The notes under the pieces are model-generated. The model saw nothing but the letters and a program-made list of their open reading frames with translations. It searched no databases and was not told the DNA's origin. A stretch of 64,000 bases of DNA from an uncultured Verrucomicrobiae bacterium (GTDB taxonomy: Bacteria; Verrucomicrobiota; Verrucomicrobiia; Chthoniobacterales; UBA10450), in the NCBI GenBank assembly GCA_963791565.1, contig CAWBSX010000004.1, positions 372,601 through 436,600 of the forward strand, read 5' to 3'. This document shows, in pieces, positions 1-62,995 of this stretch. A program made the position numbers and the translations under genes. Numbering within the stretch: position 1 is the first letter of the stretch; each line of letters opens with the position of its first letter.

Positions 1-2004
1 CGCAGCCAGGCTAATCGCGCCGACCAGCGCAGCGGCCAAGGCAACGATGCGCATGACATCTGTCACCGCCGCGAAATGTTCCTCGAGCGCTTTTCGAAAA
101 TCGCCGCGCGTTTGAATACTGCTGGAAACGAAGTGCGCATCGAGCAGCGCTTGATCGAGCGCGTTGGAAATCGAATCCGGTGCGTCCGCCGACGTCTTCA
201 CGCGCAGGAGCGTGTTGTTATCGCCCATCGCGGTAATCGCTTCGAATGTCTGATACGTGCCGTAGATAATCGGCGCGCCGATTTCTTCTACCACGCCGAC
301 CACACGCACGGTCTTGCGTCGATCGCGAAAATGAATTTCGAGTTCGCTGCCGACGCGCGCCCCGGCAACAGCTTCCTGCACCAAGCGGTTGATTACGATC
401 GTGTCCGATTCGCCGTTAAGTGGGAGACGTCCCTCTTTCACCGGCAGCTGGAACAAACGCGTCTCCGTCGGATAACCGAGGAGCGAAATCCGCGACGATT
501 CCTGTTGGTTGGTCGCGATGGTAATTGCCGCCGTCCGCCAGGCTTCGGCGATTTCAATCTCTGGAACTTGTCGCGCGACCGCCGTCAATTCGGCGGAAGT
601 CGCCGGGCGTTGCAACTGCACTTGAATGTCGTGAGCCTGATTGCCTAACGAGACGTCAACCACGCGCATCAGGCTTTCGTAAGTGTTGTCCGCAGTCAGC
701 AACATTGCGCCGCCGGCAGACAATGCCAGGAGCGTGATGGTCAGCCGACCGGGACGCCGAAAAGTATTTCGCAACGCAAAGGTCCAGCGGCGATTCCCGG
801 GCATCTTCACCCACCTTGCCGTCCTTCCCGGCGCGACAATTCCCGGTTCTTGAATCGCCTTGTGCGCCGTCATTCGCGCGGCGCGGGCGATTGGCACAAA
901 CATCGCGAGCAACGGAATGGCAAAAGTGAAAAGCAGTTCGAAACGCAGAAGCGAATTCGGCGGCGACCAATCGGCCACATCGATATTGAAAACCGTTTGA
1001 TAATAGCGGACCAGCGCGCGTCCAAGAAATGCGCCCAGGGGAAAAGCAATCGCATTCGCCGCCACGACGATCGGTGCGACCAATCCGAAATATTGTGCGG
1101 CCAGTTGATGCGAACGCGCCCCGAGCGTTTTCATGATTCCGACCTGGCGCACTTCGCGTTTCATCCAGATCGAAACCATGTAGAGGGCGAGCGACGCGCC
1201 GCAGACAAACGCAATCGCGGCGAAGGCCTGCAGCACGCGCAACATCGTGGCCATGAGCGAGGAATGCGGGTGTTGGTCGGGCAAGGCATCGGCGCGTAGC
1301 GGATTTTCGCCGGTCGCCTTAAGCGCATCGCGCAGTTCATGCGCGTAATCAGCCGTGTCGCTTAAGTCACTAGCATTTTTTAGCCTAACGAGTAGTTGAT
1401 CGAGATCTTCACTCTGTCCGATCACGTTCGCCGTCACGCGATTCACATAACCGTAGATCACACGATCCTGCGGGCTCGGCGCGACCGCCGGATCGTGCAC
1501 AAAACCCGCGAACGGAAGCGACGCCGTTCCGCCGCTCGGTTTTCGGATCTGCAACTCTTCGCCAGGTTGGGTCTCGAGCATTGATTGGCCGGATTGCTCG
1601 ATGAAAATTTCGCCGTCAGTTGGCGGCCAGGTTGCATCATGCTGGTGGATTTTGCTCAATCGCTGGCCATCGAAATTTCGCAGCACCGTCAGCCGCATGG
1701 GAAACCATTTTCCTCCTTTGCCAGCAACGCGGCTGAAGACCACACGCCGCGCGTCCACCTCGGCCACGCCTGGTTGCGCTCGAACTTTTTGCAGCAACGC
1801 GGAATTAACTTTGTCGAACCAAACGACGATGTTGGGCGATTCCGATCCGGCGAAACTGCGCGCGACTTCGCGTTGCAAAACGGCACGTGCATTCAAGGCC
1901 GCGACGACACCGGCGGCGCCGAGTGTCAGCACCAAACCGATCAACGCGATCTGCAATCGATGCGCCCGAAAATCGCCAAGAATCTTGCGCCACTGTGTGT
2001 TCAC
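1..2004 (-). CDS. ABC transporter permease, FtsX/MacB-like with two permease halves. The 3' end runs off the left edge of the window.
   Basis: It is absent from the ORF track because it is edge-truncated. Hand translation of the minus strand from GTG at 2004 is open down to position 1 (668 codons): [32 protein letters not shown]... It has an FtsX-type segment GIMKTLGARSHQLAAQYFGLV and a second half starting WTFALRNTFRRPGRLTITLLALSAGG. The GTG overlaps the TGA of the upstream ATPase (GTGA). Confidence 0.8.
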   Translation of the reverse strand, partial: MNTQWRKILGDFRAHRLQIALIGLVLTLGAAGVVAALNARAVLQREVARSFAGSESPNIVVWFDKVNSALLQKVRAQPGVAEVDARRVVFSRVAGKGGKWFPMRLTVLRNFDGQRLSKIHQHDATWPPTDGEIFIEQSGQSMLETQPGEELQIRKPSGGTASLPFAGFVHDPAVAPSPQDRVIYGYVNRVTANVIGQSEDLDQLLVRLKNASDLSDTADYAHELRDALKATGENPLRADALPDQHPHSSLMATMLRVLQAFAAIAFVCGASLALYMVSIWMKREVRQVGIMKTLGARSHQLAAQYFGLVAPIVVAANAIAFPLGAFLGRALVRYYQTVFNIDVADWSPPNSLLRFELLFTFAIPLLAMFVPIARAARMTAHKAIQEPGIVAPGRTARWVKMPGNRRWTFALRNTFRRPGRLTITLLALSAGGAMLLTADNTYESLMRVVDVSLGNQAHDIQVQLQRPATSAELTAVARQVPEIEIAEAWRTAAITIATNQQESSRISLLGYPTETRLFQLPVKEGRLPLNGESDTIVINRLVQEAVAGARVGSELEIHFRDRRKTVRVVGVVEEIGAPIIYGTYQTFEAITAMGDNNTLLRVKTSADAPDSISNALDQALLDAHFVSSSIQTRGDFRKALEEHFAAVTDVMRIVALAAALVGAISLAA

Positions 2005-2720
2005 GAAGGTGACGACCTGTCGGCGATAACGGCGCCGTCCTGTAATTCGATGACGCGATGCGCGCGGCGCGCCAAATTCGCGTCGTGCGTCACGATCATC
2101 AGCGTTTTGTTCTGCGCGATTAGTCCGTGAAAAAGTTCCGTCACGGCCGCGGCTGTTTCGGTGTCGAGATTGCCCGTTGGTTCGTCCGCGAGAACGACCG
2201 GCGGATCATTGGCCAGTGCGCGCGCGATCGCAGCGCGTTGCTGCTGGCCGCCCGATAATGCGGACGGCAATTTATTCGCCTGATCGCTCAGACCGACGAG
2301 CGCGAGCAATTCTTCCGCGCGAGTTCGTCGTTTTTCCGCGGGAATTTTCCCGACAAAGTCCATCGCGAGCAGAATGTTTTCTTCAACCGTGAGTGTCGGC
2401 AGCAGCTGAAAGAATTGGAAAACGATCCCGAGATTGCGGCCGCGCCAGAGCGCCATTTTTGATTCGGTCAATCGATTCAGGCTCTCGCCCGCCGCGCGCA
2501 CGTCGCCGGAGGTAACTCGATCGAGTCCGGCGATGAGATTGAGCAAAGTCGACTTGCCACTGCCGGATTTTCCCAGAACGGCGACGAACTCGCCGCGTGC
2601 CACTCGTAAGGAAACACCACGCAACGCGTGAAACTTGCGGCCGCCCGGTGAAGTATACGACTTCGTCGCAATGTCCAACTCCACGATCGCGGCCGGCCCG
2701 CCATTCGTTAGGCCAGACAT
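2001..2720 (-). CDS. ABC transporter ATP-binding protein (LolD/MacB-type)
   Basis: 239-aa ORF with Walker [13 protein letters not shown] signature LSGGQQQR and Walker B VVLADEPT. It is translationally coupled to the downstream permease. Confidence 0.9.
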
Positions 2721-2723: not shown

Positions 2724-3215
2724 CTAAAAAAATCGGTGACGCTGCAGCGCGAAGAAATCGGTGCCGCTTAATTTGCCCTCCGCATCGAAGCGAAATGTTT
2801 TCGTTCTTGCCGGTCGATCGGCTGAGCGAAACTCGAGAGTGGCGACGCGCACATCGCCGTTGGTTTCAACCTTTGTCACAATTAACTCGTTAGGCGATTT
2901 CGCTTTCACCATCGCCTGCATGAGAAAATCCGTGGCGTTACTTCCTTCCGGCGCGCCTTCGACCGTAAACTTTTCCGAGACGCGCGGCTTCAACGCCGTG
3001 CCATCATGCACACGCATCGCTTCGGCAAAGGCGAGCATGAAATCCATGATCGGCTTGTCGGGCGCGACGTCGGCGGCGAACAAAACATTCGCGACTTTAG
3101 CGTCCGGCGGGCCGGGAGTGGCCGCTGGTTGAGTCCCGTGTATCCATTCTTTCAAACCGCCCTGCGCCCCGGCCATGGAAAAGAAAATGAGAATGAGGGT
3201 GAGTATTTTTTTCAT
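2724..3215 (-). CDS. Secreted hypothetical protein, first gene of the ABC operon
   Basis: 163-aa ORF with an N-terminal signal-like MKKILTLILIFFSMAGAQG. Its stop lies 4 nt upstream of the ATPase start. I recognise no family. Confidence 0.55.
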   Translation of the reverse strand: MKKILTLILIFFSMAGAQGGLKEWIHGTQPAATPGPPDAKVANVLFAADVAPDKPIMDFMLAFAEAMRVHDGTALKPRVSEKFTVEGAPEGSNATDFLMQAMVKAKSPNELIVTKVETNGDVRVATLEFRSADRPARTKTFRFDAEGKLSGTDFFALQRHRFF

Positions 3216-4668: not shown

Positions 4669-4679
4669 TCGACCACTCG

Positions 4680-5672
4680 TTAGGCGAACTCGCGAAAAAT
4701 CTCCGCGCCAATTTCGAACGAGCGCAGCCGCGCCGCGTGATCGAAAATTTGTCCGGTGGCAATTATTTCGTCGGCGCCGGTTTCGTCCAGAATGGATTTT
4801 ACCCGCGTGCGAATGGTCGCGGGCGATCCGATGAGCGCATAACGCATTCGCTCGTCCACGGCCGCGCGCTCCAGCATATTCCACTCAACTTCCATGTCGT
4901 CGACGGGCGGCGGCAATTCGCCGGGCTGGCCGCGCACAAGATTCAAAAACATCAGCTGCGCGGAAGTGGCGATTCGCTGACCTTCTCGGTCGGTCTCCGC
5001 GCCAAAGAGTCCGGCGCCGATCATGACGTAAGGTTTCTGCAACTGCGCCGACGGTTTGAATTCGCTGCGATAAATCTTGAGAGCGACGTGCAGATATTCC
5101 GGCGCGAAATGTGAGGCGAAGGCGAAAGGCAGGCCGAGCTCCGCCGCGAGACGCGCGCTAAAATCGCTCGAGCCTAACAAGTAGAGCGGCACCTTTAAAC
5201 CCGCGCCCGGTACCGCACGCAACCTCTCGTTAGGCGCAGCCGGCTTGAAATAGGATTGCAGTTCGAGAAGGTCTTGCGGAAAAGTCTCGCCGCTGCTGCC
5301 GAGATAACGCCGCAAAGCGCGTGCAGTCAGCTGGTCGCTCCCCGGCGCGCGACCGAGGCCGAGATCGATCCGTCCGGGATAGAGCGATTCCAGCGTGCCG
5401 AACTGTTCCGCGATCACGAGCGGCGCGTGATTCGGCAGCATGATCCCGCCCGCGCCGACGCGAATCTTTTTCGTCGCGCCCGCGACATGACCGATAACGA
5501 TCGACGTCGCCGCGCTCGCGATTCCTGGAAGATTGTGATGCTCCGCTAGCCAGAAGCGATGATAACCCCACTCCTCCGCGTGCCGCGCCAGATCGGCCGT
5601 GTTGCGAAATGCCTGCGACGCGTCACCGCCTTCGACAATCGGTGACAGATCGAGAACGGAATAGAACTGCAT
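4680..5672 (-). CDS. LLM-class (luciferase-like) flavin-dependent oxidoreductase
   Basis: Start chosen at [12 protein letters not shown] (ATG at 5672, overlapping the TGA of the upstream gene). [26 protein letters not shown] is typical of this family. The TAA stop lies inside a motif copy. Confidence 0.8.
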
Positions 5673-6016
5673 CAGGTCCGAACGGACTGCACGATCAGCA
5701 GCACGATATCGAGCAAGGCCACAACGATGATGAAGGCGCCGAATTTCTTCTTGCTCCAATACGGAATGGTCTCGTTAGGCGAAAGCTCCTCTGTGCGCTT
5801 CATCCCGGTCGGCGTCATCTCGAATCGCCAACCGATGATGAGCGCCATGGGAAATCCCAGCGCGACGATGATGATGAAAAACTTGAGCAGACCCGGTGCA
5901 TCCATCATTGGAAAAAAGATCCAGGCGAGATCAATCGCCAGCCAGGCGAGCAACAGGTAAACGACCGTGACCTTGTGCACGTTGCGGCGTCGAAATTCGC
6001 GAAAGAAATTGGTCAT
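5672..6016 (-). CDS. Small integral membrane protein
   Basis: 114 aa with 3 hydrophobic helices. It is overlap-coupled on both sides (ATGA at 6013-6016 and TGATG at 5670-5674). Confidence 0.55.
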
Positions 6017-6951: not shown

Positions 6952-8022
6952 ATGAGTGCTCTTCGAATTCTCGCGGTTCTGCTCGCCTCGATTGCCATCT
7001 CGTTCGCGGCCGATTATCCGCAGCCGGCCGAAAGTGATTACATCATTAAGGACTTCAAGTTTGCGTCCGGTGAATCCTTGCCGGAATTGCGCATTCATTA
7101 TCGGACTATCGGTAAACCGGATACCGACGCGCACGGGGAAATTCATAACGCCGTGCTGATCACGCACGGCACCACCGGGAGCGGCGCACAATTCGTTAGG
7201 CCGGAATTTGCCGGCGAACTTTTCGGCGCGGGACAGCCGCTCGATGCCGCAAAATTTTTCATCATCCTGCCGGACGGAATCGGCCACGGAAAATCGAGCC
7301 GGCCGAGCGAAGGCTTGCACGCGAAGTTTCCGCGCTACGGCTATCGCGACATGGTCGAAGCGCAGTTCCGTTTGTTAACCGACGGCCTTGGCATCAAACA
7401 CGCGCGGCTCATCATGGGCACATCGATGGGCGGAATGCACACCTGGCTCTGGGGCGAAATGCATCCGGATTTCATGGACGCCCTCATGCCGCTGGCGAGT
7501 TTGCCGACGCAAATTTCCGGTCGCAATCGCGGGTGGCGCAAAACAGTCAGCGACGCTATCCGCAACGATCCCTCCTGGGAAAACGGCGATTACAAGACAC
7601 AGCCGCAGAGTTTGCGCACCGCGGCGGAGATGTTGTGGTTCATGAGCAGCAATCCGGTCTTGCGCCAAACGGAAGCCCCGACTTTGGAGAAGACGGATGA
7701 GGTGCTCGAAAAGTTCGTCGCTGATCATCTGAAAAATGACGACGCGAACGACGTGCTCTATGCAATCGAAGCATCGCGTGATTACGATCCCGGTCCGAAC
7801 CTGGAGAAAATTCGCGCTCCACTTCTCGCGATCAACTCCGCCGATGATCTGATCAATCCGCCTGAGCTCGGAATTCTGGAACGCGAAATCAAACGCGTCC
7901 CGCACGGACGCGCCATCGTTATTCCATTAAGCGACAAGACGCGCGGGCATGGCAGCCACACGCTGGCGGCGTTGTGGAAAGATGAGTTGGTAAAACTACT
8001 GGCCGAATCTACTACTCGTTAG
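6952..8022 (+). CDS. Secreted alpha/beta hydrolase (homoserine O-acetyltransferase-like fold)
   Basis: Start at MSALRILAVLLASIAISFA (signal-like). It has the nucleophile elbow GTSMGGM. The stop is the TAG inside the motif copy at 8015. It overlaps the convergent gene by 11 nt. Confidence 0.75.
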   Translation: MSALRILAVLLASIAISFAADYPQPAESDYIIKDFKFASGESLPELRIHYRTIGKPDTDAHGEIHNAVLITHGTTGSGAQFVRPEFAGELFGAGQPLDAAKFFIILPDGIGHGKSSRPSEGLHAKFPRYGYRDMVEAQFRLLTDGLGIKHARLIMGTSMGGMHTWLWGEMHPDFMDALMPLASLPTQISGRNRGWRKTVSDAIRNDPSWENGDYKTQPQSLRTAAEMLWFMSSNPVLRQTEAPTLEKTDEVLEKFVADHLKNDDANDVLYAIEASRDYDPGPNLEKIRAPLLAINSADDLINPPELGILEREIKRVPHGRAIVIPLSDKTRGHGSHTLAALWKDELVKLLAESTTR

Positions 8023-9103
8023 GCCGAATTCCGCGTTGCGTCACCAGATAGACCGCGAAACTGCCTAACCAGTGGCCACCTTCGTAATGTTCGCCGGTGA
8101 CGGCGGCTAACCCCGCGCGACGATGCGCCGCGGCCGCGGCTTGCAAAGCACCACGGCGCGAATCGTCTTTGGGCAAAACGGAAAGAATTCCTTCCAGCAT
8201 CCAGGCACGGCTTAGATTCAAGCCGTCGAGGTGCGCCAACTTTGGATCGCTCGGATCCGGCGAGACAGCTATTGGCAGCCAGTCGATCTTGGACTCGTTA
8301 GGCAATTGCGGCAGAAAATCCTTCAGCCATTTCGCAAAATCATCCGCTGGAAGAACGCGGCGCATGACGTCCGCTTCCGCCAAACAGGGCGAAAGAAAAT
8401 CTTCCCCGGAAGGTTCGTAAGCCAGGGGCGCGTTCTTGTCGGCGTCGAAAAATTGTCTGGCCTTTGCGCTCACCAGTTTCGCGAACTCTTCGTTCTTAAC
8501 CACGCGCGCGTAGTCCAGCATCAAGCCCAGGGAAAAGGCCGTTTGATTGTGTTCGCCGATGCGAATTGGGTGAGAAAGTTTCGGCAGCCAGTTCGTTAGG
8601 CGCTCAAGCGCGGCCGTTTCGACCGGCTGCAAGTTTGTCGATAATTCGCGTGCCTCCGGATCATCCCATTCGCGCAATTCGGCGCAGAGTTGCAGCAACC
8701 ATGCTAATCCATATGGCCGCTCGAAACTGGCGCGACCTTCGCCGCGCAAATAGGCCGCCTCCTGTTTGAGATTCTCCGCGCTCAAACTCTTGCGCAGTGC
8801 TTCGCGCGCCGCGGCCGCGAAAGGCGCATCGGGAAATGTTCTCGTCAGGCGAACGAGCAACCAATGGCCGTGCACGGAGGAATGCCAGTCGTAACAGCCG
8901 AAAAATGCCGGCGTCAGTTTGCGCGGCGGCGCGACATCGGCGTCGCTGTTCAAATTGTGGCTGATCTTGTTCGGATACTCTTTGGCGACGCAGGCGAGCG
9001 CCAGATCGGCGAAACGTTGCGCGGCTGCGACATCGAATTTCGGCGAAGATTCTTCCGCCATAACCACGAGCGGGAGCAAAAATAGAAATGCGCACGTTTT
9101 CAC
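8012..9103 (-). CDS. Secreted hypothetical protein (DUF2891-like)
   Basis: 363 aa with signal-like MKTCAFLFLLPLVVMA and CYDWHSSVHGHW, as I recall for DUF2891. The family assignment is from memory and unverified. Confidence 0.55.
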   Translation of the reverse strand: MKTCAFLFLLPLVVMAEESSPKFDVAAAQRFADLALACVAKEYPNKISHNLNSDADVAPPRKLTPAFFGCYDWHSSVHGHWLLVRLTRTFPDAPFAAAAREALRKSLSAENLKQEAAYLRGEGRASFERPYGLAWLLQLCAELREWDDPEARELSTNLQPVETAALERLTNWLPKLSHPIRIGEHNQTAFSLGLMLDYARVVKNEEFAKLVSAKARQFFDADKNAPLAYEPSGEDFLSPCLAEADVMRRVLPADDFAKWLKDFLPQLPNESKIDWLPIAVSPDPSDPKLAHLDGLNLSRAWMLEGILSVLPKDDSRRGALQAAAAAHRRAGLAAVTGEHYEGGHWLGSFAVYLVTQRGIRPNE

Positions 9104-9758: not shown

Positions 9759-10478
9759 GTGGAGACGAAGACACATATTCTAATCACCGGTTCGACGCGT
9801 GGCATCGGCGCCGTCACGCGCGACGAATTGAAGAAACAGGGCGCTCGTGTCATCGGTCACGGTTCGCGCGCAGCCGGAGCGGAAGAAATCCCCGCGGATC
9901 TCTCGCAGCCCAATGCAGCGGATGCACTGTGGCGCGAAGCGATCGAACGACTCGACGGCCGGATTGACGTCCTGATCAATAATGCCGGCATTTACGAACC
10001 TGTGTCCGTTGGAGAGAGCACGGAAGTTTGGGAAGCGCGCTGGAATCGCACCATGCAGATCAACCTCCAGGCCGCAGCGGATCTTTGCCGACTGGCCGTT
10101 TCGCATTTCCGATCGCGCGCCGGAGGCGGTCGCATCGTCAATGTCGCGAGTCGCGCGGCCCATCGCGGTGATTCGCCGGAGCACTGGCATTACGCGGCGT
10201 CGAAAGCGGGCTTGATCGCTGTGACAAAGTCGATCGCGCGTGGATTCGCGACCGAAGAAATCTACGCCTTTGCCGTCGCGCCCGGTTTCACCATGACTGG
10301 AATGGCGGAAGATTACCTAACGAGTCGTGGAGGTGACGCGATCCTGAAAGAGATACCATTACGTCGCGTGAATTCCGCGGAAGAAGTTGCCAACGCGATC
10401 GTTTATCTCGCTCTGCACGCTCCAGCCGCAATGACCGGCGCGGTGATTGATATCAATGGCGCGAGTTACGTGCGCTGA
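9759..10478 (+). CDS. SDR-family oxidoreductase
   Basis: 239 aa with TGSTRGIG cofactor motif, NNAG, and catalytic YAASKAG (YxxxK). Confidence 0.9.
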   Translation: METKTHILITGSTRGIGAVTRDELKKQGARVIGHGSRAAGAEEIPADLSQPNAADALWREAIERLDGRIDVLINNAGIYEPVSVGESTEVWEARWNRTMQINLQAAADLCRLAVSHFRSRAGGGRIVNVASRAAHRGDSPEHWHYAASKAGLIAVTKSIARGFATEEIYAFAVAPGFTMTGMAEDYLTSRGGDAILKEIPLRRVNSAEEVANAIVYLALHAPAAMTGAVIDINGASYVR

Positions 10479-10698
10479 TTTGCCTAACGAGTAGTTAATT
10501 CGCTGCTAAAACGCGGCTGTCCTACCGCGTTTCAACCGTTGTCCCAAAAGCGGAACGGTCACATCCCAAGCACGACACGTTTCCGATGGACTCGTAAAAT
10601 GATCCACATTCTCAAGTGGCTGATTTAATGGTATTTGTGACTTGTTTTTGGCGGTGGCATAGGCCTTGCAAATAGAAGCGGCCTAACCAAACAAACCA

Positions 10699-10947: not shown

Positions 10948-10980
10948 TCGTGGCGTTGCTAAACGCCTAACGAGTCCTGC

Positions 10981-13443: not shown

Positions 13444-13503
13444 TTCGTATGCGAGAAGAAGCGCGGCGCGACACTCTGGGTAGCGCAAGCGTCTCGCGCG
13501 CCG

Positions 13504-13535
13504 GTTTCGGTGTCTCGCCGAAACGAACTTTTTTT
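13504..13535 (+). terminator. Candidate rho-independent terminator after paralog 1
   Basis: Stem GTTTCGG (13504-13510) pairs with CCGAAAC (13518-13524). After 4 nt there is a T7 run (13529-13535). Confidence 0.45.
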
Positions 13536-49684: not shown

Positions 49685-49761
49685 AGGTTCGCGGCACGCT
49701 CTGGCGGAAGCGGTCGCGATGCAACTTAGGCGCGGCAGGAATTCTGCTTACTCACGTGCCG

Positions 49762-50538
49762 ATGAAAAAAAGTGCCCGCGGTACGCTTCTCCTGTTGCTC
49801 TTCTGCTTTTCCGGAACGCTTGAGGCCTTCCCGCCAGAGATCCAAATGAATTGGGGCGTCGGCGCGCAAAATATTTCCGGAGACAGTGATGTCGCGACGG
49901 ACGGCACCCTGGTGGATGCTTTCGTTTTTGGTGATAACACCGTCGCTGACGTGACGGTCAACGGCGTGACTTTCCGCGCATTCAACGTCCCGAGCGACGG
50001 CTCCACGCAATTTGGAGCGGTCGGAAATTACACTCTGAGCACGACCTCGACTCCGCTCGTCGCTTACAGCAACCTCAGCAGTCAGGAAGCGCCTTACGGC
50101 CTGCTCTCGAACGGCTATCAAACCATGCTCGGCCAGGCGGGCAGCACCAGTTCGCCAGGCATGCTCGTTCTAAGCATCGATGGCCTGACGGTTGGCCAGC
50201 AGTATCTCTTTCAATTTTGGACTTCGAACTCTCCGCTGACGACAGCGAGCCCGTCGGGGAATCGTTTTTCCACCATCGGGACCGCGGTCAACTCCATCAA
50301 TCTGGTCGATAACATGCCCAATACCGACGGCGGAATCGGACAGTTCGCCATCGGCACTTTTACCGCCACGGCTTCTTCAGAATTCATGAGCTTCTCGGGG
50401 ATCGACGGCAGCAACGATCCCGCCATCAACGCCTTTCAATTGCGCGCTTTGGCCGTGCCGGAACCGGGCAGCAGTGTCCTGCTCGGTTTGGGATTGCTCA
50501 TGGGCAGTTTTGTTTTTCGGCGCCGCCGTCCTGCCTAA
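49762..50538 (+). CDS. PEP-CTERM sorting-domain secreted protein
   Basis: It has the signal MKKSARGTLLLLLFCFSGTLEA and a C-terminal VPEPGSSVLLGLGLLMGSFVFRRRRPA (PEP motif, TM helix, Arg cluster). The TAA stop lies inside the motif copy at 50533. Confidence 0.85.
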   Translation: MKKSARGTLLLLLFCFSGTLEAFPPEIQMNWGVGAQNISGDSDVATDGTLVDAFVFGDNTVADVTVNGVTFRAFNVPSDGSTQFGAVGNYTLSTTSTPLVAYSNLSSQEAPYGLLSNGYQTMLGQAGSTSSPGMLVLSIDGLTVGQQYLFQFWTSNSPLTTASPSGNRFSTIGTAVNSINLVDNMPNTDGGIGQFAIGTFTATASSEFMSFSGIDGSNDPAINAFQLRALAVPEPGSSVLLGLGLLMGSFVFRRRRPA

Positions 50539-50690: not shown

Positions 50691-53600
50691 ATGGTTTTCC
50701 GATCCCCCCGCGCTGGCTGGAAAGCGCGGTCGATCATTGCCGGTGGCTTTTTTCTTTTCTCACTCGGCTCCGCCTGCGCGGCGCCAGATTACAGCAGGGA
50801 CATCGCAGTGTACGATCGATTCCTCGCCCAGGTAAAATCGGACGACGAAATTGTGCGCTTTGGCGATGTGGGACTTACGCCAGCGCAGCTACGCACCTTT
50901 CGAGAACGACTCGTTAGGCTACAAGGCGCCGCCGAAAAAGGCGCCGCGATCGAACCGGACGTGGTCACGCCCGCCGGCACAACCTTCAAGTGGCCGAGCG
51001 GAAATGTTTTCTACCGTTTCGATCCGTCGCAGGTCACGGCCGGGACCATTACCTCGGCGAAGATGCAGGCATTTCGCGATGGCATCGCGGAATGGGCCGC
51101 GTTCGCTAATTTGCATTTCAACGAATTTACCGGGACGCCGCCGGCGAATTACATCACCGTCCAGCAAAACACCACGGGCAACGAAGGCGGCTTCTCCTCA
51201 TCGGTAGGAATGGCGGGTGGCGAACAGTTTGTGCAGTTCGGTCCGAACAGTTGGAATCGCGGCACGGTTTGCCACGAAGTCGGTCACGCCATCGGCCTCT
51301 GGCACGAACAACAGCGCCCCGATCGCGACACTTATGTCACGATCAACTTCAGCAACATCGATCCCGCGCAGCAGGGCAACTTCACCATTGTCGCAGGCGG
51401 GCAGACCTTCAGCACCGCTTACGATTTTTACTCGGTGATGCATTACCGGCGCGCTGACCTGACCAACAAAATGGGCACGCCCAATCCGAACGCGCCCGAT
51501 CCAACCATCGACACCGTGGATCCGAACGCGCCCTATCTGTTTTTCCTAAACATCATGGGCAACGTCTATGATCGGACCTTGAGCAAATCCGATCGCGCCG
51601 GCATGGCGGCGATCTACGGAAATCCGTCACCGCTGCCGGGTGCCGTGGTCACTAATACAAACGACAGCGGCCCGGGAAGTTTGCGCAGCGCGATCTATTA
51701 CGCCTTCGATCGCTCGACCGACGCAGTGCCGACCCCGACGACGGTGACATTTCACATTCCGACCAGCGATCCGAACTACAACGCCAGCACCGGTGTCTTC
51801 ACCATCAAGCCGACATTCCTGCTCGTGGCGCTCGGTGCTGGCACGACCATCGATGGCTCTTCGCAAACTGCATTTACTGGCGACACGAATACGAGCGGAC
51901 CCGAGATCGCGCTCGATGGATCGCAAATTGCCGGGCAAGGACTCGGCCTCTTCGCCTCCGGGATTCCCATTCATGACAGCAATTGCACGATCAAGAATTT
52001 GATCATTAACGGATTCAATCAGAATGGCATCGTCCTCGACGGCACCCGCGCCGCGCTCTTTGGTACTTCGGCGAACGGGAACGTCATCACCGGTTGTTAC
52101 ATTGGAACAGATCGGACCGGCACAGTCGGCGTGGCCAACACATTTCCCGGCATCGAACTTCTCGGCGGCGCATCGAACAATACCATCGGCGGCCTAACGA
52201 GTACTTTGCGCAACATTATTTCCGGCAACGCCAGTTACGGCATATCGATGCACGACGCCGGCACGAGCAATAATTTGATTGAAGGAAATTACATTGGGAC
52301 AAACGCCGCCGGCGCCGGCGCAGTCTCGAACGCGGCCGCGGGCATAGGAATTTTCAACGGCGCAAACCACAACACCATCGGCGGAACCACCAGCACCGCG
52401 CGCAATCTCATTTCCGGCAACAAGGGGCAGGGCGTCCAGATTTTGGATTCCGGCTCCAACGCCAACGTCATCGCTGGAAATTACATCGGCGTAAACGTGA
52501 GCGGAAACAGCGCCCTGGCCAATGGCTTCTTCGATCCGCCTAACGAGTCGTTTTCTTCCGGCGTCGATATCTTCAACGGCGCGCAAAACAATGTGATCGG
52601 CGGCACCGCACTCGGTTCGGGCAACGTCATCTCCGGCAACGCCGCTTACGGCGTCGGCATTTCCAATTCCGGCACCAATGGCAACATCGTCCGTGGAAAT
52701 CTTATCGGCGTTGGCGCCAACGGCACGACCGCCATTCCAAACGGCAACGCCGATCCCGGCCATATGCCGTTTCCGGTTTTGTTCGCGGGCGTGGGAATCT
52801 TCGGCGGCGCCTCGAACAACATCATCGGCAGCGCCGGTTCCGGTAATGTCATCTCCGGCAACGCTGCGCAAGGTGTCGTCGTCTCCAATAGCGGCACGAA
52901 TGGCAACGTTATTTCTGGAAATATTATCGGTCTGAATGCGTTCGGAAACAGCGCGCTGGCCAACGGCTTTTCCGGCATCGGAATCTTCGGCGGCGCACAA
53001 AACAACACCATCGGCGGCCTAACGAGTAATGCCGGCAACATTATTTCGGGCAACAGCAATCAGGGGATCGCCATCAGCAACAGCGGCACCAACGGCAACG
53101 TTGTGCAGGGAAATTTCATCGGGGTGAACAGCGGCGGCGGAACGGCTTTCCCGAATGCCTTCGAAGGCGTGGCTATTTTCGGCGGCGCCTCCAATAACAC
53201 GATCGGTGGCCTAACGAGTAGTGCGCGCAACATTATTTCCGGCAACACCGGCGCGGGAATTTCCATCGGCAACAGCGGCACCAACGGAAATTCGGTGCAG
53301 GGAAATTACATCGGCACCGATGCCAACGTGTACCACTGCGGTCGGCAATGTTCCCGAAGGCGTGAGTATTTATAACGGCGCTCAGAACAACGTCATCGGT
53401 GGCGGTGCCGGTGCGCGTAATGTCATCTCCGGCAATGGCGCGCGCGGCGTGGGAATTTTCGACGCTGCGACAATGAACAACACCGTGCAGGGAAATTACA
53501 TCGGGCTAAATACGAACGGGAACGCGGCCATTCCGAATAATTTTTCCGGCGTGGAAATTTATCTCGGCTCCAACAACACCATCGGCGGCACGACCGGCAG

Positions 53601-54678
53601 TACGCGCAATTTTATTTCCGGCAACAACGATCGCGGCGTGCTTATCGACGGCGCCAACGCGAGCGGAAATGTCGTGCAAGGAAACACCATCGGCCTTGAT
53701 ATTACCGGCACCGCGCGACCGAATGGAAATACCGGCGTGGAATTCTTCACCGGTTCCCACGCGAACACGATCGGCGGCAGCGCGTTTGGCGCGAGCAATC
53801 AAATCGCGAGCAACACGAACGATGGTATTCGGGTTTACGACAGCGGCACCGACGGCACCAACATGATGGCGCTCCTTGGGAATTCCATTTTCAACAACAG
53901 CGCTCTCGGAATCGATTTGCTCTACGGCAATAGCGGTCCGCAGCATCCGAACAATCAGCAGGCCGCGCCGACCTTGAGTTCCGCGGTGCTCGGCTCCGCC
54001 AGTAACATCAGTGGCACCGATGTCAGCGGCACGTTGAACAGCACGGCCAGCACAACTTTCCGCATCGAATTTTTCGCCAGCCCGGGCGGGACGAGTCAGG
54101 GGAAAAATTTTATCGGTTCAACTAGTGTGACCACGAACGGTTCTGGTTCCGCTTCGTTTGCTTCGCTGCATCTCGCCGCCGCCGTTCCGATCGCGCCCGT
54201 GCAAAGTGGCGGCAGCGTGATCACGGCGACCGCGACTGATCCAAGCAACAATACGTCGCAATTTTCCGCACCGGTTGCGGTAACTGCGACCGATAGCGGT
54301 GGCGCGGGAATTCCCGATAACTGGATGGTTGCACACTTTGGCCCCACTTGGCAGACGAACCCGAGCGCAGCGCCGAATGCGGATCCGGACGGTGACGGCC
54401 TAACGAATGCTCAGGAATTTCTCGCCGGAACCGATCCAAAATCAGGTGGCAATTCGCTGCACATCACGGCCATCGCGCGCAGCGGCATAGACCGGCTCGT
54501 CGCCTTCGCTTCCGTGACCGGAAAAACTTATCGCGTCGATTACAAAGATGATCTGCTCAGCGCGAATTGGATTCTGCTGCAAGATCAACTCAACGCCACA
54601 GGCAACAGCACACAAATCACCGACACTGGCGCGGGAAATCTCGCCCGCCGTTTTTATCGCATCGCGCTCGATCAGTAG
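50691..54678 (+). pseudogene. Giant secreted astacin-like (M12) metalloprotease fused to a long parallel beta-helix repeat region, one frameshift
   Basis: It has the signal-like MVFRSPRAGWKARSIIAGGFFLFSLGSACA, the zinc site HEVGHAIGLWHEQQRPDRD and the Met-turn SVMHY. More than 25 repeats of the type NNTIGG(L)TS.ARN.ISGN...G..I...GT.GN.V.GN.IG follow. There is a DPDGDGLTNAQEF Ca-binding-like segment. The two track ORFs join if the T at about 53329 is removed (GTDANG TTAVGNVPEG). Confidence 0.8.
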
Positions 54679-55828: not shown

Positions 55829-56641
55829 ATGGCCGAAACAGATTACGTCCTCGGCACGCACGATGAAGAAGTCGCGCGGCTCGGCCTGCAACATCGCGTC
55901 TGGCGACCGGTCGTGACCGAATGCTGGCAGCGCGCCGGCATTACCGACGGCTGGCGCGTCATCGACATCGGCGCAGGACCGGGTTACGCCACCGCTGACC
56001 TCGCGGAAATTGTCGGACCGACCGGCGCTGTTCTCGGCATCGAACGCTCGGCGCGTTTTCTCGAAGCCGCACGCGATCGTTGCGCGCGTCGCGGCCTGAC
56101 GAATGTCAAATTCCGCGAGAGCGACCTGATGGAGCTCTCGTTAGGCAATCTCAATTACGACGCCAGCTGGTGTCGCTGGGTCGCGTCATTTGTTTCATCG
56201 CCGAAACTCCTGGTCGAAAAAATTGCCGGCGCCTTGCGCAAAGGCGGCATCGCCATTTTTCACGAGTACAGCGACTACGAAACGTTTTGCTTCATGCCGC
56301 TTCGTCCGGCGATCGAAAACTTCCGGCGCGAGGTCGCATCGAGCTGGCGCGCCAGTGGCGGCGAACCCGATGTCGCGCGTCAGTTGCCGGGACTGCTGCG
56401 CGACGCGGGAATGCGCGTGCGCGAAATCCGGCCGCGCGTCATCACCATTTCACCGCACGATTATGCCTGGCAATGGCCGGCGAGCTTCATCGAGATTAAC
56501 GTCCTGCGTTTACAGGAGCTCGGTCGCCTAACGAGTGAACAAGGCGCGGAGGCCTTGCGCGAATTTCACGAAGCCAATGCTGATCCCGAGTCCTGGTTCA
56601 CCACGCCGATGTTTCTCGAAATCGTGGCGGAGAAAAAATGA
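55829..56641 (+). CDS. Class I SAM-dependent methyltransferase
   Basis: 270 aa with motif I VIDIGAGPGYAT. The stop overlaps the next start (ATGA). Confidence 0.8.
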   Translation: MAETDYVLGTHDEEVARLGLQHRVWRPVVTECWQRAGITDGWRVIDIGAGPGYATADLAEIVGPTGAVLGIERSARFLEAARDRCARRGLTNVKFRESDLMELSLGNLNYDASWCRWVASFVSSPKLLVEKIAGALRKGGIAIFHEYSDYETFCFMPLRPAIENFRREVASSWRASGGEPDVARQLPGLLRDAGMRVREIRPRVITISPHDYAWQWPASFIEINVLRLQELGRLTSEQGAEALREFHEANADPESWFTTPMFLEIVAEKK

Positions 56642-57893
56642 AACGACTGCTCGTTTCGTTTTTGTTGTTCACTGCGATCGCTCGCGCCGACCAGCCTATC
56701 CTGTTGAAACCAGCCGCCGTTTTCGACGGACAGGAAATGCATCCCGGTTGGTCGGTCTTGATAAATGGAGACAAAATTTCTGCGGTCGGGCAGCGGATGT
56801 CTCCGCGCCGGCGGACGCGCGCACGATCGAGTTGCCTAACGAGACCTTGATGCCGGGAATGATCGAAGGTCATTCGCACATGTTCCTTCACCCGTACAAC
56901 GAGACGAGTTGGAACGAGCAGGTGACTAACGAATCGTTGGCCTTGCGCACTGCGCGCGCCACTGTGCATGCGCGCAAAACTTTGGAAGCTGGTTTCACCA
57001 CCGCGCGCGATCTCGGGACGGAAGGCGCCGGTTATGCCGATGTCGGACTGAAGCAGGCGATCGATAGCGGAATTATTCCCGGTCCGCGTCTCATCGTGGT
57101 TACGCGCGCGATCGTCGCGACGAAAAGTTACGGGCCGAAATACGCGAGCGAACTCGACGTTCCGCAAGGCGCGCAGGAATGCAGCGCCGTCGATGAATGT
57201 ACCCGCGTGACGCGCGAGCAAATCGGCAAAGGCGCGGACTGGGTGAAGGTCTACGCCGATTATCGCTGGACGCCTAACGAGTCATCGCGCCCGACATTTT
57301 CGCAGGAAGAATTAAATGCGATCGTGCAGACAGCTCGTTCTGCGGGTCGGCCGACTGTGGCGCACGCCACAACCGCGGAAGGAATGCGTCGCGCGATTAA
57401 CGCCGGCGTGGACTCCATTGAGCACGGCGATGAAGGAACCGCGGAAGTGTTCCGTTTAATGAAACAAAAAAACGTCGCGTTTTGCCCGACGGTCGCTGCG
57501 GGCGATGCCGTCTCCCGTTATCACGGCTGGAAAAAAGGAACGGATCCGGATCCACCGCGCATCGCGCAAAAACGCGCGAGCATGAAAGCCGCGCGCGAAG
57601 CCGGCGTGACCTTTGCGATGGGCGGCGATGTCGGCGTTTTCACTCATGGCGAGAACGCGCTCGAAATGGAATTGCTCGTGCACGAGTACGGCTTCACGCC
57701 TCTGGAAGTGTTGCGCCAGGCGACGAGCGGCAACGCCGCCGTGTTCCATCTCACCGACCGAGGACTCGTTAGGCCAAATTTGCTCGCCGATCTCGTGGGT
57801 GTGGAAGGCGATCCGACGCGCGACATCGATCTTGTGCGCAAAGTAAAGTTCGTCATGAAAGGCGGGACAGTCGTGCCTTTGCCTAACGAGTGA
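56638..57893 (+). pseudogene. Secreted amidohydrolase (metal-dependent, imidazolonepropionase/Xaa-Pro dipeptidase-like), one frameshift
   Basis: The true N-terminus is MKRLLVSFLLFTAIARADQPILLKPAAVFDG...INGDKISAVG (track ORF 56638). It continues as ADVSAPADARTIELPNETLMPGMIEGHSHMF in the frame of track ORF 56535, with 1 nt missing near 56791-56793. Confidence 0.8.
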
Positions 57894-58727
57894 TGGAAAC
57901 ACCCGACGCTCTCCCGCCAAAACCAAAACGTTGGCCGGTCGCGCTGCTGGTCGGCTTCATCAGTGCGATCATCGGCGCGGCGATCTCCGCGCCCGTCTCC
58001 GACTGGGCGATGCAGATGCATCACGTTTCCGCGCGCGAAGGCGAACGCGGGTATGCGGTCATGTGCCTCTGGATACCGCTTGCGTTTGTCATCTGTTTCG
58101 TCGCTGGATTTGTCGTTAGTCTGCTAATCAAGCGCAGCGGTTTCGTCGGTTATTTGCTGCGCCAAGGTGCGGCGCTCGCCATTGTTCTATTTTGGTCGGC
58201 GATCGGGCGCCGTTGGTTACGCCACCGCCGATCATCCGCCGTTGGTCGATGGAAAAAATCTCGCGCTCGAAATCGAAGTGCGCGTGCCACGCAAAGGTCG
58301 ATCCATCGAAGATTTGAAAAAAGCCGATTTCAGTGTTGCGCTCGTCGTCTCAAATTCCGATCGCAGTTATTCCGACATGCGTTGGACGGAAGCGAGCGAG
58401 TCTAACGAAACCATCACTATTCCCGCCTGGGCCAATTTGAATTCGCGCAACGCTGGCCGCGAAATCACCGCCGGCATAAAAGATGAGAACCGGCAAATCT
58501 TTAACGTCATGCGTCGCGCCTCGCCTGCGATCGATGAAGCCTGGTCGGAATGGGAACCGCCGCGCGAGCGGTTCGATGGCAGCAAGCCGGCGCCGGGAGA
58601 TCAATATCAGGTTCGCTATCGCGTGCGTTTCGCGGGCGAATACTCACCGACCCCGCGACCGACGCTTACTTACGAGCCATCGACCCCGGAAGAAACGGCG
58701 TCGCCTAACGAGTCGTCGTCGCCATAG
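57890..58727 (+). pseudogene. Membrane protein with C-terminal soluble domain, probable single frameshift
   Basis: Track ORFs 57890 and 58167 join at about 58208, where there is an extra C. The third TM helix is then complete across the junction (GAALAIVLFWSAIG/AVGYATADHPP). No family recognised. Confidence 0.5.
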
Positions 58728-60163: not shown

Positions 60164-62970
60164 CTTCGATCGAAAAGAAATTGCGGACCGCAGATTGCGA
60201 TGTCGCCTTCGACAATCTTACGCGCCAACTCTTCGCCAGCGATGCCTCCTTATATCAAATCGAACCGCTCGGCGTCGCATATCCGCGCAGTCCGCAGCAG
60301 GCGCGCTCGATCATAACTACCGCGGCCGAGGCCGGCATCTCCGTCATTCCGCGCGGCGCCGGCAGCGGACTTTCTGGCGGCGCGATTGGCGATGGATTGA
60401 TCGTCGATTTCTCGCGCTTCAATCGCGAGATCAGTGCGTTTGATTTGGAGAAACGAACGGTGCGCATCGGTGCCGGCGTCGTGCTCGATCAACTCAACGC
60501 CTTCTTGAAGCCACACGGCTTTTGTTTTGGTCCGGACGTAGCGACGAGTTCGCGCGCCACGCTCGGCGGCATGATCGCGAACAATTCTTCCGGCGCGCGT
60601 GTGCCGGTTTACGGCACGACGGCTGATCATGTCGTCGCGCTCGAAGTGGTCCTGGCTGATGGCCGGATTGAAAACATTTCGACGAACAACCACTCGTTAG
60701 GCGCGGAACACCAATTCATCGCGCAGCTCGTGCAGCGTCACGCCGCTGACATCGCGGAATGGATGCCGCCGGGAATGTTGAAACGCTGGAGCGGCTATGG
60801 GCTCGCGCGTTTTCTTAATGAGCCGAACGACTTAACGGAGATCTTTTCGGCGAGTGAAGGAACGCTCGGCGCGATTTGTTCTGCCGAACTCAACATCGTG
60901 CCACTGCCGCGGGAAAAAGGTTTGGGCCTGGTGTTTTTCGCGTCGGTCGCCGAGGCGATGCAAGCGACGGTCGAATTGCTGGACCTCAAGCCATCGGCCA
61001 TCGAGCACATCGACAAGCCACTCTTCGATCAGACGAAGGGTCAGCTTCTTTTCCAGGCCGCGCGCGATTTGATGGAGCTCGATACGAAACCGTGCGAAGC
61101 GATCTTGATCGTCGAATTCTACGAAGATGTCGCCGCGTGCCTAACGACACTCGCATCGAAACAGCTCGGGCTTCGCACCTTGATCTGCAAAAACGCGGCG
61201 GAGATGAATCTCATCTGGGCGATGCGCAAAGCCGGATTGTCGCTCCTGACCGGCCGGGTCGGTCCCGCGAAGCCGGTGGCTTTCATCGAAGATGCCGCCA
61301 TTCCACCGCACAAGCTGCCGGAATACGTCGCGGGCTTGAGATCGCTCATGGATCCGCTCGGTCTCGAGGTTTGTTATTACGGCCACGCCGCCACCGGACT
61401 ATTACACGTGCGGCCGGTGCTCGATCTGCGGCGAGCAGATGACCTGCGGAAGTATCGGCAAATCGCCGACGGAGTTTCAGCACTCGTTAGGCAATTCAAA
61501 GGCTCGCTCGCCGGTGAGCACGGCGTGGGCATCGCGCGGACTGAATACATGCGCGCACAAGTGGGCGACGAATTGTTCGGTGTCATGCGCGAGATCAAGC
61601 GCCTCTTCGATCCGAAGAATCTTTTTAATCCGGGGAAATTGATCGGCGACGGCGAATTCAAAGTCGATTCGCATTTGCGCAGCACCTACACCTCGCATCC
61701 GACGCTGCCGTTTGAACCACGCCTCGCGTTCGCGTTTAAAGATGGTTCGTTCATCGGCAATCTCGAGCAGTGCAATGGCTGCGGCGGGTGTCGCAAAGAT
61801 GCGCCGACGATGTGTCCAACTTTCCTCGCTACCGGTGAGGAATACATGTCGACGCGCGGTCGCGCCAATGCCATCCGCGCCGCGCTGGAATTGCGCACGG
61901 ACAATCATGATCCCCTGCGCGCGCATGAGTTGGAAAAAGCGCTGAGCAACTGTCTTTCGTGCAAAGCTTGCACGACGGAGTGTCCGTCGAACGTCAATCT
62001 GGCATTGCTCAAGGCCGAGCTGCTTTATGCGCGCCACCGACGCGATGGTTTGCCGCTGCGCGAACGAATGCTGAGTGCGGTGGACTTGTTAAGCAAGCTC
62101 GGTTGTCTCGCTCCGCGTCTGGCCAACGCCACGCTGGAAAATCGATTCGTGCGCGGGTTGATGCAGAACTCGTTAGGCATTTCGGCGAAACGACCCTTGC
62201 CGCATTATGCGCGGGAGCGTTTCGATAAATGGTTCGTGAAACATTCGCCGACGAAAACGACGCGAGGGCGTGTGATTCTTTGGGATGACACCTTCGTCCG
62301 CTATCATGAACCGAACATCGGCATCGCCGCCGTAACGGTTCTGGAGTCGTTAGGCTTCGAAGTTGCGCTGGCGAAGAATCGGAAATGCTGCGGACGTCCG
62401 GCGTTCAGTCAGGGAAACATCGATGAAGCCAAACGGCTCGGTCAGCATAATCTCGCGCTGCTGAAGGGATCCGACGCACCGATTCTGTTTCTGGAACCTT
62501 CGTGTTACTCAATGTTCGCGGAAGATTATCGCGAGATGAATTTGACCGACGCGGTGGCCGTTGCGCCACGCGCATTTCTCTTCGAACGATTCGTCGAAGA
62601 CATTCTCGAACGCGAACCGAATGCGTTGCACCTCAAGCAAACCGCGGGACACGTCGCAATCCATGCGCATTGTCACGCCAAAGCGCTGATGAAGCCCGAC
62701 TTTATGAAGCAGCTCGCGCAACGTTTGCCCGGCAGAAAGGTGGAGCTACTCGACACCGGCTGCTGCGGAATGGCGGGCGCATTTGGCGCGCTGGAATCAA
62801 AATACGAATTATCGCTACAAGTGGCGGAACCACTCGTTAGGCAAGTTGAGGCGCAACCGAACGAGACGACAATCGTCGCCTCTGGCACGAGTTGCCGTCA
62901 TCAAATCGAACATCTCACGACCGCCAAGCCGCAGCACATGGCAGAGTTACTGGCCGATGCCTTAGTCTGA
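60160..62970 (+). CDS. FAD-binding (GlcD-like) dehydrogenase fused to a 4Fe-4S / CCG-domain module (YdiJ-like)
   Basis: Start at MTSIEKKL, where the ATG overlaps the upstream TGA. It has an FAD PCMH domain (PRGAGSGLSGGAIG), Fe-S motifs CNGCGGCRKDAPTMCP and CLSCKACTTECP, and CCG motifs CCGRPA and CCGMAG. About 936 aa. Confidence 0.85.
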   Translation: MTSIEKKLRTADCDVAFDNLTRQLFASDASLYQIEPLGVAYPRSPQQARSIITTAAEAGISVIPRGAGSGLSGGAIGDGLIVDFSRFNREISAFDLEKRTVRIGAGVVLDQLNAFLKPHGFCFGPDVATSSRATLGGMIANNSSGARVPVYGTTADHVVALEVVLADGRIENISTNNHSLGAEHQFIAQLVQRHAADIAEWMPPGMLKRWSGYGLARFLNEPNDLTEIFSASEGTLGAICSAELNIVPLPREKGLGLVFFASVAEAMQATVELLDLKPSAIEHIDKPLFDQTKGQLLFQAARDLMELDTKPCEAILIVEFYEDVAACLTTLASKQLGLRTLICKNAAEMNLIWAMRKAGLSLLTGRVGPAKPVAFIEDAAIPPHKLPEYVAGLRSLMDPLGLEVCYYGHAATGLLHVRPVLDLRRADDLRKYRQIADGVSALVRQFKGSLAGEHGVGIARTEYMRAQVGDELFGVMREIKRLFDPKNLFNPGKLIGDGEFKVDSHLRSTYTSHPTLPFEPRLAFAFKDGSFIGNLEQCNGCGGCRKDAPTMCPTFLATGEEYMSTRGRANAIRAALELRTDNHDPLRAHELEKALSNCLSCKACTTECPSNVNLALLKAELLYARHRRDGLPLRERMLSAVDLLSKLGCLAPRLANATLENRFVRGLMQNSLGISAKRPLPHYARERFDKWFVKHSPTKTTRGRVILWDDTFVRYHEPNIGIAAVTVLESLGFEVALAKNRKCCGRPAFSQGNIDEAKRLGQHNLALLKGSDAPILFLEPSCYSMFAEDYREMNLTDAVAVAPRAFLFERFVEDILEREPNALHLKQTAGHVAIHAHCHAKALMKPDFMKQLAQRLPGRKVELLDTGCCGMAGAFGALESKYELSLQVAEPLVRQVEAQPNETTIVASGTSCRHQIEHLTTAKPQHMAELLADALV

Positions 62971-62995
62971 CAATTGTCATCGCCTAACGAGTGAT

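Follow-up and report, generated by a model that had tools for sequence, protein, structure and literature searches.

A hyper-abundant, strand-symmetric DNA word in uncultured soil Chthoniobacterales as a candidate lineage-specific self-DNA tag

A 64,000-nucleotide stretch of DNA from an uncultured bacterium (contig CAWBSX010000004.1, positions 372,601 to 436,600), referred to here as the window, contains 49 exact copies of GCCTAACGAG, the 10-mer of the non-palindromic, 10-11-nt sequence GCCTAACGAG(T), between positions 643 and 62991. The copies are divided almost equally between the strands, with 24 on + and 25 on -, and the two orientations are interleaved along the 64 kb. We refer to this sequence as word A and to AAGATCGACA(A), found in a sister clade, as word B. 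Our analysis suggests that word A is a lineage-specific self-DNA tag of a clade of uncultured Chthoniobacterales, similar in kind to the DNA uptake sequences (DUS) and uptake signal sequences (USS) of Neisseriaceae and Pasteurellaceae, a reading to which we assign a probability of about one half (0.5). For these bacteria, we infer biased uptake, a receptor, and natural competence.

Word A occurs at 0.77 copies per kb, or about once every 1.3 kb. Dinucleotide-preserving shuffles of the window yielded a mean of 0.07 copies and never more than 1, and predictions from order 0-4 Markov models, for which the word was masked in training, were 0.04-0.37. Shuffling synonymous codons left approximately 8 copies, 7 of which were intergenic and kept by construction; inside coding sequences (CDS), at most about 1 copy was expected and 37 were observed. 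The initial annotation, which had been made from the letters of the window and their open reading frames, reported about 49 copies in a 24:25 split. Both the count and the split were confirmed at every coordinate, and the excess held against Markov and codon-aware expectations alike. The exact copies are accompanied by a halo of near-matches. Exact copies numbered 49 where 0.03 were expected and one-mismatch copies 40 where 2.1 were expected, and no enrichment in the window was seen for two-mismatch (39, with 41 expected) or three-mismatch copies (351, with 393 expected). All of the one-mismatch positions picked out earlier were correct. The commonest forms are GCCTAACGAA (11 copies), GCCTAACAAG (6), GCCTAACGAC (5), and GACTAACGAG (5). 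Changes cluster at word positions 10, 8, and 2, most commonly as G>A at 10 and 8, and positions 3, 4, and 9 are invariant among these copies.

Some preference extends past the core. Upstream of the 49 copies, T stands at -2 in 31 and a pyrimidine at -1 in 36. Downstream, T follows at +11 in 37, in line with the earlier estimate of three quarters; +12 and +13 are G or C in 36 and 39 copies, and +14 is T in 38. Apart from these 1-4 weakly preferred bases, the flanks are unrelated, and they are random outside -2 to +14. No 12-16-mer in the window was commoner than GCCTAACGAG plus chance flanks, and a repeat finder returned no longer unit containing word A and no conservation past ~14 nt. We also looked for even spacing and found gaps that match random placement (coefficient of variation 0.93 vs. 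0.97). Density had been described as uneven, and there are indeed 7 exact copies in 56137-58712 (the interval starts at 56137, not 56147) and none in 13576-15987. However, the 3.2-kb word-free stretch in this second permease paralog is what chance predicts for ~89 sites and, because the sites are spaced near-randomly, it is not significant. At one place, the exact copy at 50533 and a one-mismatch copy at 50544 form a tandem arrangement.

Genes were modeled for this analysis from trained codon usage, which covered 90.5% of the window; the window has frameshift-type indels, and a few frame assignments may consequently be off. When exact matches to GCCTAACGAG were placed on this model (Table 1), 37 lay inside genes, 5 lay across a gene end, and 7 were intergenic. 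Copies that are not gene-internal are therefore 2.5-fold over-represented (12 of 49, compared with 9.5% non-coding DNA; p=0.0017). Read in the sense direction, internal copies encode xPNE (14 copies) or (G/R)LT(S/R) (7 copies); in antisense, the gene reads xSLG or LVR(Q/L/P) (8 copies each). No gene-strand bias was found among the internal copies (21 sense vs. 16 antisense). A stop codon is embedded in either strand of word A, TAA in the word as written and TAG in its complement. Copies occupy each of the four frames free of stops, and the stop-containing frames occur only where the word itself forms the stop codon, at 4676, 20970, 27660, 31051, and 50533; several further copies lie 3-17 nt from a stop codon. 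A sizable share of the rare codons in the window falls within word A copies, including 8 of 33 AGG, 14 of 71 CCT, 7 of 57 CTA, and 8 of 106 TTA codons. Since the copies impose these rare codons, the constraint acts on DNA and not on a protein motif.

Conservation at orthologous sites was assessed in blastn alignments to sibling species, with arbitrary identical 10-mers of the same alignments as background. Word A copies were kept at 10 of 11 sites in L001 (background 0.34), 6 of 11 in L051 (0.13), 5 of 7 in L006 (0.12), 3 of 4 in L003 (0.13), and 3 of 4 in L012 (0.09), for binomial p values per relative between 1e-4 and 7e-3. Over 45 pooled site pairs, identity was 88% in the word A core and 73% in the flanking 20 nt on either side. 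In relatives that lack the word at a site, the aligned stretch is equal in length and has 4-7 differences, for example GACGATGGAG facing the copy at 12000. These equal-length, diverged sequences at empty sites indicate that copies are gained and lost by substitution rather than by insertion of an element. Sites were not conserved in L008, L014, L015, or L010, where word A is not enriched.

The window belongs to an uncultured lineage of soil Chthoniobacterales (Verrucomicrobiota). Its gene content, as annotated with Pfam, is ordinary and consists of housekeeping and envelope genes, such as those for PEP-CTERM proteins, rplQ-rpoA, carB, scpB, and phosphoglucomutase. The nearest relatives of the phosphoglucomutase (up to 97% amino-acid identity) are in metagenome-assembled genomes (MAGs) labeled Chthoniobacterales or Verrucomicrobiota and not Acidobacteria, so the acidobacterial frame that the initial annotation had implied from its permease genes had to be abandoned. 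The nearest DNA match to the window is L001, with 88% identity across 19 kb. Relatives were arranged on a neighbor-joining tree of the phosphoglucomutase protein alone (80 relatives), and their word densities come from samples of 4-21 kb, mostly of one shared region. On this basis, word A is restricted to the clade of the window, at 0.05-0.6 per kb in relatives compared with 0.77 in the window and with orientations in a ratio of 70:77. It is enriched in several species whose MAGs were assembled independently by other studies.

In the sister clade, word B, which is unrelated to word A, behaves in a like manner; it lies on both strands and reaches 0.2-1.5 copies per kb. Its carriers include L034, with 27 copies per 21 kb, and L047, as well as L030, L056, L062, L073, L048, and others. 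The 9-mer core of word B, AGATCGACA, has strand counts of 106:85. Between L034 and L047, which share 77% DNA identity, 13 of 16 word B sites are kept (p=1e-9), and genomes without word B show near-matches at its sites, such as CAGATCGATC and CCGATCGACA. A search for distinct dialects of word B revealed only a weaker preference at one position. A shorter and looser form of word A, (G)(C)CTAACGA, in which the tenth base varies, shows enrichment in L034, L047, L021, L042, and L022. The initial annotation had suggested looking in relatives for the same or a drifted motif; word A is present in the clade and the short form in other lineages. Neither word was found in a Chthoniobacter-like outgroup or in MAGs labeled Ca. 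Udaeobacter, and no further lineage-specific hyper-abundant word was convincing in the 4-21 kb samples of low-density and outgroup loci.

The enrichment also extends beyond the region sampled in most relatives. L051 lies on a 1.87 Mb contig of a clade-mate, and a 21-kb region of that contig 800 kb away holds 4 exact copies of word A and 10 of its 9-mer GCCTAACGA. In the equivalent dprA region of a second clade member, L222, the exact word occurs 4 times and the 9-mer 8 times, and that of L221, a genome outside the clade, holds no word A. When metagenomes were scanned with the 16-mer TTGCCTAACGAGTSST as seed, at least 120 contigs matched. Among the matches listed, 18 contigs had 1-3 further exact copies, 27 in total vs. 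~1.3 expected, and most of these 18 were unrelated to the window; the listed matches were mostly single-copy contigs, reflecting chance or low-density lineages, which makes this partial evidence for a genome-wide word. The same scan of IMG/VR viral contigs gave 19 single matches, which is background. Density differs between regions and between genomes. Taken together, the independent species, the distant contig region, and the metagenome contigs argue against a local oddity of the window, a concern that the initial annotation had raised itself.

How could such a word arise? If word A is an uptake-type self-DNA tag, a surface or periplasmic receptor, most plausibly a component of a type IV pilus or pseudopilus, would prefer double-stranded DNA that bears the word. 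Imported DNA would be loaded by SSB and DprA and then recombined by RecA into the homologous locus, and alleles with the word would be taken up more often than alleles without it. Because of this bias, point mutations that create or improve the word would tend to be fixed and those that destroy it reverted, in a proposed molecular drive acting at gene ends and wherever the protein tolerates change. The abundance, symmetry, indifference to frame, rare-codon cost, halo, conservation of sites, origin by substitution, and lineage restriction of word A fit the prediction of such a drive.

The same properties are those of DUS and USS, which are likewise non-palindromic 9-12-mers present about once per kb and equally on both strands. 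They also lie in genes in every stop-free frame, are enriched outside genes, have a halo of singly mismatched copies, and occupy stable orthologous sites at which copies are born by point mutation. Both they and word A are lineage-specific, with the embedded stop codon tolerated at gene ends only. The density of word A is similar to published DUS and USS densities. There are also differences. Word A occurs in another phylum, in uncultured soil Verrucomicrobiota, and has an unrelated sequence. DUS and USS have the receptors ComP and ComN, of which word A would have a putative equivalent. A 2025 comparative survey describes uptake sequences as a feature of two proteobacterial families, Neisseriaceae and Pasteurellaceae, in which approximately half of the copies are in terminators, many of them as inverted pairs (bioRxiv 10.1101/2025.10.24.684340).

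Several observations weigh against an uptake tag. Word A has almost no inverted pairs and no association with terminators: word A copies showed no link to terminator-like hairpins and, over 1-20 kb of the window, no overlap with them, and the only loose inverted pairs of the word there are 34519/34541 and 12721/12738. The DUS/USS likeness first proposed stands for abundance, symmetry, frames, halo, conservation, and lineage restriction, but not for the association with inverted-repeat terminators. The word of the sister clade is unrelated, where DUS and USS dialects differ by 1-3 nt, and L034 and L047, with both the short form of word A and word B, are two-word genomes. The density of word A spans 15-fold among close relatives, and its copies are spaced at random and not evenly. 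The bacteria themselves belong to an uncultured lineage. Finally, of the competence proteins, only DprA and SSB were demonstrated in a motif-bearing genome among ~2.2 Mb of loci screened, and since both are near-universal, they discriminate little.

Two inverted repeats in the window touch on this subject. At 34519-34550, the inverted one-mismatch copies GCCTAACGAA and CTCGTTAGTC form a potential hairpin over the rplQ stop codon; no other inverted pair in the window is both DUS-like and located where a gene ends. At 20881-20965, a 27-nt inverted repeat (89% complementary, with a 31-nt spacer) lies amid convergent genes directly before the copy at 20970 and is likely a bidirectional terminator.

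The screen for competence genes was based on regular expressions and heuristics, and across the ~2.2 Mb of loci it sought PilT/PilB, prepilins, RecA, DprA, and ComEC, recovering only one DprA and one RecA. The 1.87 Mb clade-mate contig, which was found via a DprA on a metagenome contig, encodes ssb-dprA, and a pseudopilin cassette adjoins these genes. The cassette is a divergent operon (L220, 1912-6762 -; L222, 632-6825 -) beside a conserved prs-rplY-pth-rpsF-ssb-dprA-topA cluster in two genomes of the clade. Its products are two prepilin-type proteins, a secreted protein of 187-189 aa, PEP-CTERM proteins, and a ~640-aa protein (641/623) whose hydrophobic N-terminus is pilin-like and which weakly resembles HpsA. 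The latter has no sequence relative in PDB, and its only match otherwise is the weak HpsA-like one. The operon is a possible pilus-tip set; it is not at this position in L221, L224, or L225. The cassette was also considered as a receptor for the word, and its being only 42-44% identical between the L220 and L222 genomes, which share one word, argues against that role.

Other explanations should be considered alongside an uptake tag. Tentatively, word A could be a tag that marks the whole genome as self for a novel recognition system inside the cell, and not an uptake signal. Such a system may have roles in recombination, repair, chromosome handling, or defense against foreign DNA, and it may be able to switch to an unrelated word between sister lineages, coexist with a second word, or be lost. 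In that case, word A would represent a new class of chromosomal signal in one of the most common groups of soil bacteria. It is doubtful that word A is the binding site of a lineage-specific intracellular chromosomal protein, such as a nucleoid-associated, condensin-loading, or self-marking protein for defense or repair, kept by ordinary selection site by site. The sites are more conserved than the background and than the DNA flanking them, and a word of this length and specificity could be a protein site. In addition, scpB is present in the window, and a distribution without orientation suits non-polar binding. However, site-wise selection poorly explains the halo, the random spacing, or the wholesale swap to an unrelated word in the sister clade. 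The parS, NBS, SBS, and matS systems have tens of sites, and we know of no chromosomal protein that uses thousands of exact genic 10-11-mers at the cost of rare codons.

We consider it unlikely that word A is the product of biased repair or gene conversion with no uptake step, in the manner proposed for HIP1. Near-matches would then be turned into the word by an enzyme such as a sequence-specific methyltransferase, a mismatch endonuclease, or a nicking enzyme. Word A is longer than typical methyltransferase or Vsr-type sites, and it is not palindromic. Moreover, very-short-patch repair depletes its substrate variants, whereas one-mismatch variants of word A are enriched. In favor of such a process, copies of word A do arise from near-matches by point substitution, and word B contains GATC and TCGA. 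HIP1 (GCGATCGC) of cyanobacteria is equally hyper-abundant, lies in coding DNA, and is conserved across species by selection (PMC5861425, PMC4390886), as word A is conserved. It differs in that its 8-nt sequence is a palindrome and overlaps sites recognized by two orphan methyltransferases, while word A is a non-palindromic 10-11-mer. The function of HIP1 was long unresolved and has lately been linked to transformation efficiency (PMC5861425; bioRxiv 10.1101/2024.09.10.611283).

It is very improbable that RecBCD/AddAB or FtsK reads word A directionally, as a signal for recombination or translocation comparable to Chi, KOPS, or AIMS. These are the other classic over-represented chromosomal words, conserved as word A is and read by a DNA-processing machine. 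However, they are shorter, sparser, and strongly co-oriented with replication, and word A is without polarity over the 64 kb, with orientations interleaved at 24:25 and standing at 70:77 in relatives, which bears out the initial doubt about a polar function. Word A is also longer and several-fold denser than Chi. That the copies are miniature mobile elements, REP-like repeats, or artefacts of assembly or sequencing is scarcely credible, even with frameshift-type indels in rpoA and carB that suggest an error-prone assembly and three copies inside internal protein repeat units, given that the flanks are unrelated with no longer repeat family (as had been noted at the outset), the sites are orthologous across species with equal-length sequence at empty ones, word A is also enriched in MAGs that other studies assembled independently, and REP, BIME, and MITE repeats are longer, usually intergenic, palindromic, and spread by insertion, whereas word A is point-like and genic in 37 of 49 cases.

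Full-text searches of the literature for word A or word B returned only unrelated matches, such as primers, and searches that paired uptake sequences or competence with Verrucomicrobia, Chthoniobacterales, or Udaeobacter turned up nothing of relevance. Word A is so far undescribed in the searchable literature, and its pattern is otherwise known only from the uptake tags of Neisseria and Haemophilus relatives. If word A is an uptake tag, it would be the third independent case of sequence-specific uptake tags, this time in uncultured soil Verrucomicrobia that are relatives of Ca. Udaeobacter. Self-preferring transformation would then not be peculiar to host-associated Proteobacteria, and a dominant, unculturable soil lineage would be actively exchanging genes with a bias toward kin. 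Neighboring clades with word A, word B, both, or neither provide a natural experiment, and comparative genomics across them could reveal the receptor and test molecular drive as the sole builder of the words. Both words can serve as diagnostic k-mers for binning these lineages, and their inclusion in DNA constructs could be tested as a way to gain genetic access. Should word A prove to be something other than an uptake signal, it would represent a new, unexplained type of genome-wide signal.

Table 1. Copies of word A in the window. Context is given relative to the modeled gene; residues are those read by that gene through the word.
Position	Strand	Context	Residues	Remarks
643-652	+	antisense, FtsX-type permease gene (1-2004 -)	VSLG	
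1383-1392	+	antisense, FtsX-type permease gene (1-2004 -)	LVRL	
2886-2895	-	sense, CDS 2724-3215 (-)	SPNE	
4676-4685	-	luciferase-like monooxygenase gene (4680-5672 -)		TAA is the stop codon
5226-5235	-	sense, luciferase-like monooxygenase gene (4680-5672 -)	APNE	
5771-5780	-	sense, CDS 5672-6016 (-)	SPNE	
8015-8024	-	sense, DUF2891 gene (8012-9103 -)	RPNE	stop 3 nt downstream
8294-8303	-	sense, DUF2891 gene (8012-9103 -)	LPNE	
10482-10491	+	intergenic		3 nt past stop of SDR gene 9759-10478
10965-10974	+	intergenic		6 nt upstream of MacB-like permease paralog 1; kept in L051
12000-12009	-	antisense, MacB-like paralog 1	LSLG	diverged, equal length in L051 and L006
12721-12730	-	antisense, MacB-like paralog 1	LVRQ	kept in L051, L006; degenerate inverted partner at 12738
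18434-18443	+	18-nt spacer, MacB-like paralogs 3/4		
19424-19433	-	antisense, MacB-like paralog 4	LVRQ	
19666-19675	-	antisense, MacB-like paralog 4	DSLG	
20697-20706	+	sense, MacB-like paralog 4	GLTR	
20970-20979	+	antisense, metallophosphoesterase gene 20972-21424 (-)		TAG is the stop codon; adjoins hairpin 20881-20965
25146-25155	+	sense, SufE-like gene	RPNE	
27660-27669	-	within fragmented carB		TAG terminates ORF 27209-27667; kept in L003
29817-29826	-	antisense, CN-hydrolase gene	DSLG	kept in L001
31051-31060	-	antisense, Cu/Zn superoxide dismutase gene 30510-31058		TAG is the stop codon
32955-32964	+	sense, HD-domain gene	RLTS	kept in L001
33403-33412	+	sense, HD-domain gene	LPNE	kept in L001
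34430-34439	-	intergenic, rplQ / gene 33685-34413		kept in L001
35020-35029	+	intergenic, rpoA/rplQ		exact or one-mismatch in L001, L051, L006, L012 despite flanking indels
37390-37399	+	antisense, TPM-domain gene	LVRL	kept in L001, L051
39752-39761	-	sense, scpB	LPNE	kept in L001, L051, L006, L003, L012
41691-41700	+	antisense, hexapeptide-transferase gene	VSLG	kept in L001, L051, L003, L012
45772-45781	-	sense, sulfatase gene	KPNE	kept in L001, L006
46253-46262	-	sense, sulfatase gene	GLTS	kept in L001, diverged in L006
47040-47049	-	intergenic, divergent gene pair		kept in L001, L051
50533-50542	+	PEP-CTERM protein gene 49756-50538		TAA is the stop codon
50910-50919	-	antisense, astacin/beta-helix gene	LVRL	
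52192-52201	+	sense, astacin/beta-helix gene	GLTS	internal repeat unit; not in L051
52538-52547	+	sense, astacin/beta-helix gene	PPNE	
53017-53026	+	sense, astacin/beta-helix gene	GLTS	internal repeat unit
53209-53218	+	sense, astacin/beta-helix gene	GLTS	internal repeat unit
56137-56146	-	antisense, methyltransferase gene	LSLG	
56526-56535	+	sense, methyltransferase gene	RLTS	
56834-56843	+	sense, amidohydrolase gene	LPNE	
57272-57281	+	sense, amidohydrolase gene	TPNE	
57765-57774	-	antisense, amidohydrolase gene	LVRP	
57881-57890	+	sense, amidohydrolase gene	LPNE	stop 3 nt downstream
58703-58712	+	sense, CDS 58182-58727	SPNE	stop 15 nt downstream
60693-60702	-	antisense, FAD-oxidase/CCG gene	HSLG	
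61483-61492	-	antisense, FAD-oxidase/CCG gene	LVRQ	
62169-62178	-	antisense, FAD-oxidase/CCG gene	NSLG	
62833-62842	-	antisense, FAD-oxidase/CCG gene	LVRQ	
62982-62991	+	25-nt spacer, ends of two convergent genes		
2704-63861	both	40 one-mismatch copies (17 +, 23 -)		spread across the window

The astacin/beta-helix gene (52149-53629 +) contains internal repeats of ~192-219 nt. At the same place in their 65-nt cores, 3 of 6 carry an exact word A and the other 3 have unrelated sequence, and the L051 ortholog is without word A at the repeat sites. As the copies at 52192, 53017, and 53209 occupy 3 of the 6 repeat units, at most 2 copies are attributable to duplication.

Among other features of the window, rpoA (35032-36072 -) and carB (25540-28750 +) are split over 2-3 frames by indels of 1-2 nt; both are intact in L001 and L003, which served as the reference for these indels. 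Because rpoA is essential, the split genes point to an error-prone assembly rather than to real pseudogenes, and the assembly of the window is probably of this kind, likely from long reads. Four tandem paralogs of an 800-aa permease of the MacB/FtsX type occupy 10981-20863 (+), which are the genes labeled ADOP in the initial annotation, and another FtsX-type permease gene with an adjoining ABC ATPase gene lies at 1-2720. A c-di-AMP riboswitch (Rfam RF00379, 53.7 bits) is located at 31114-31265 (+), upstream of an SPFH/Band-7 gene at 31349-32653.

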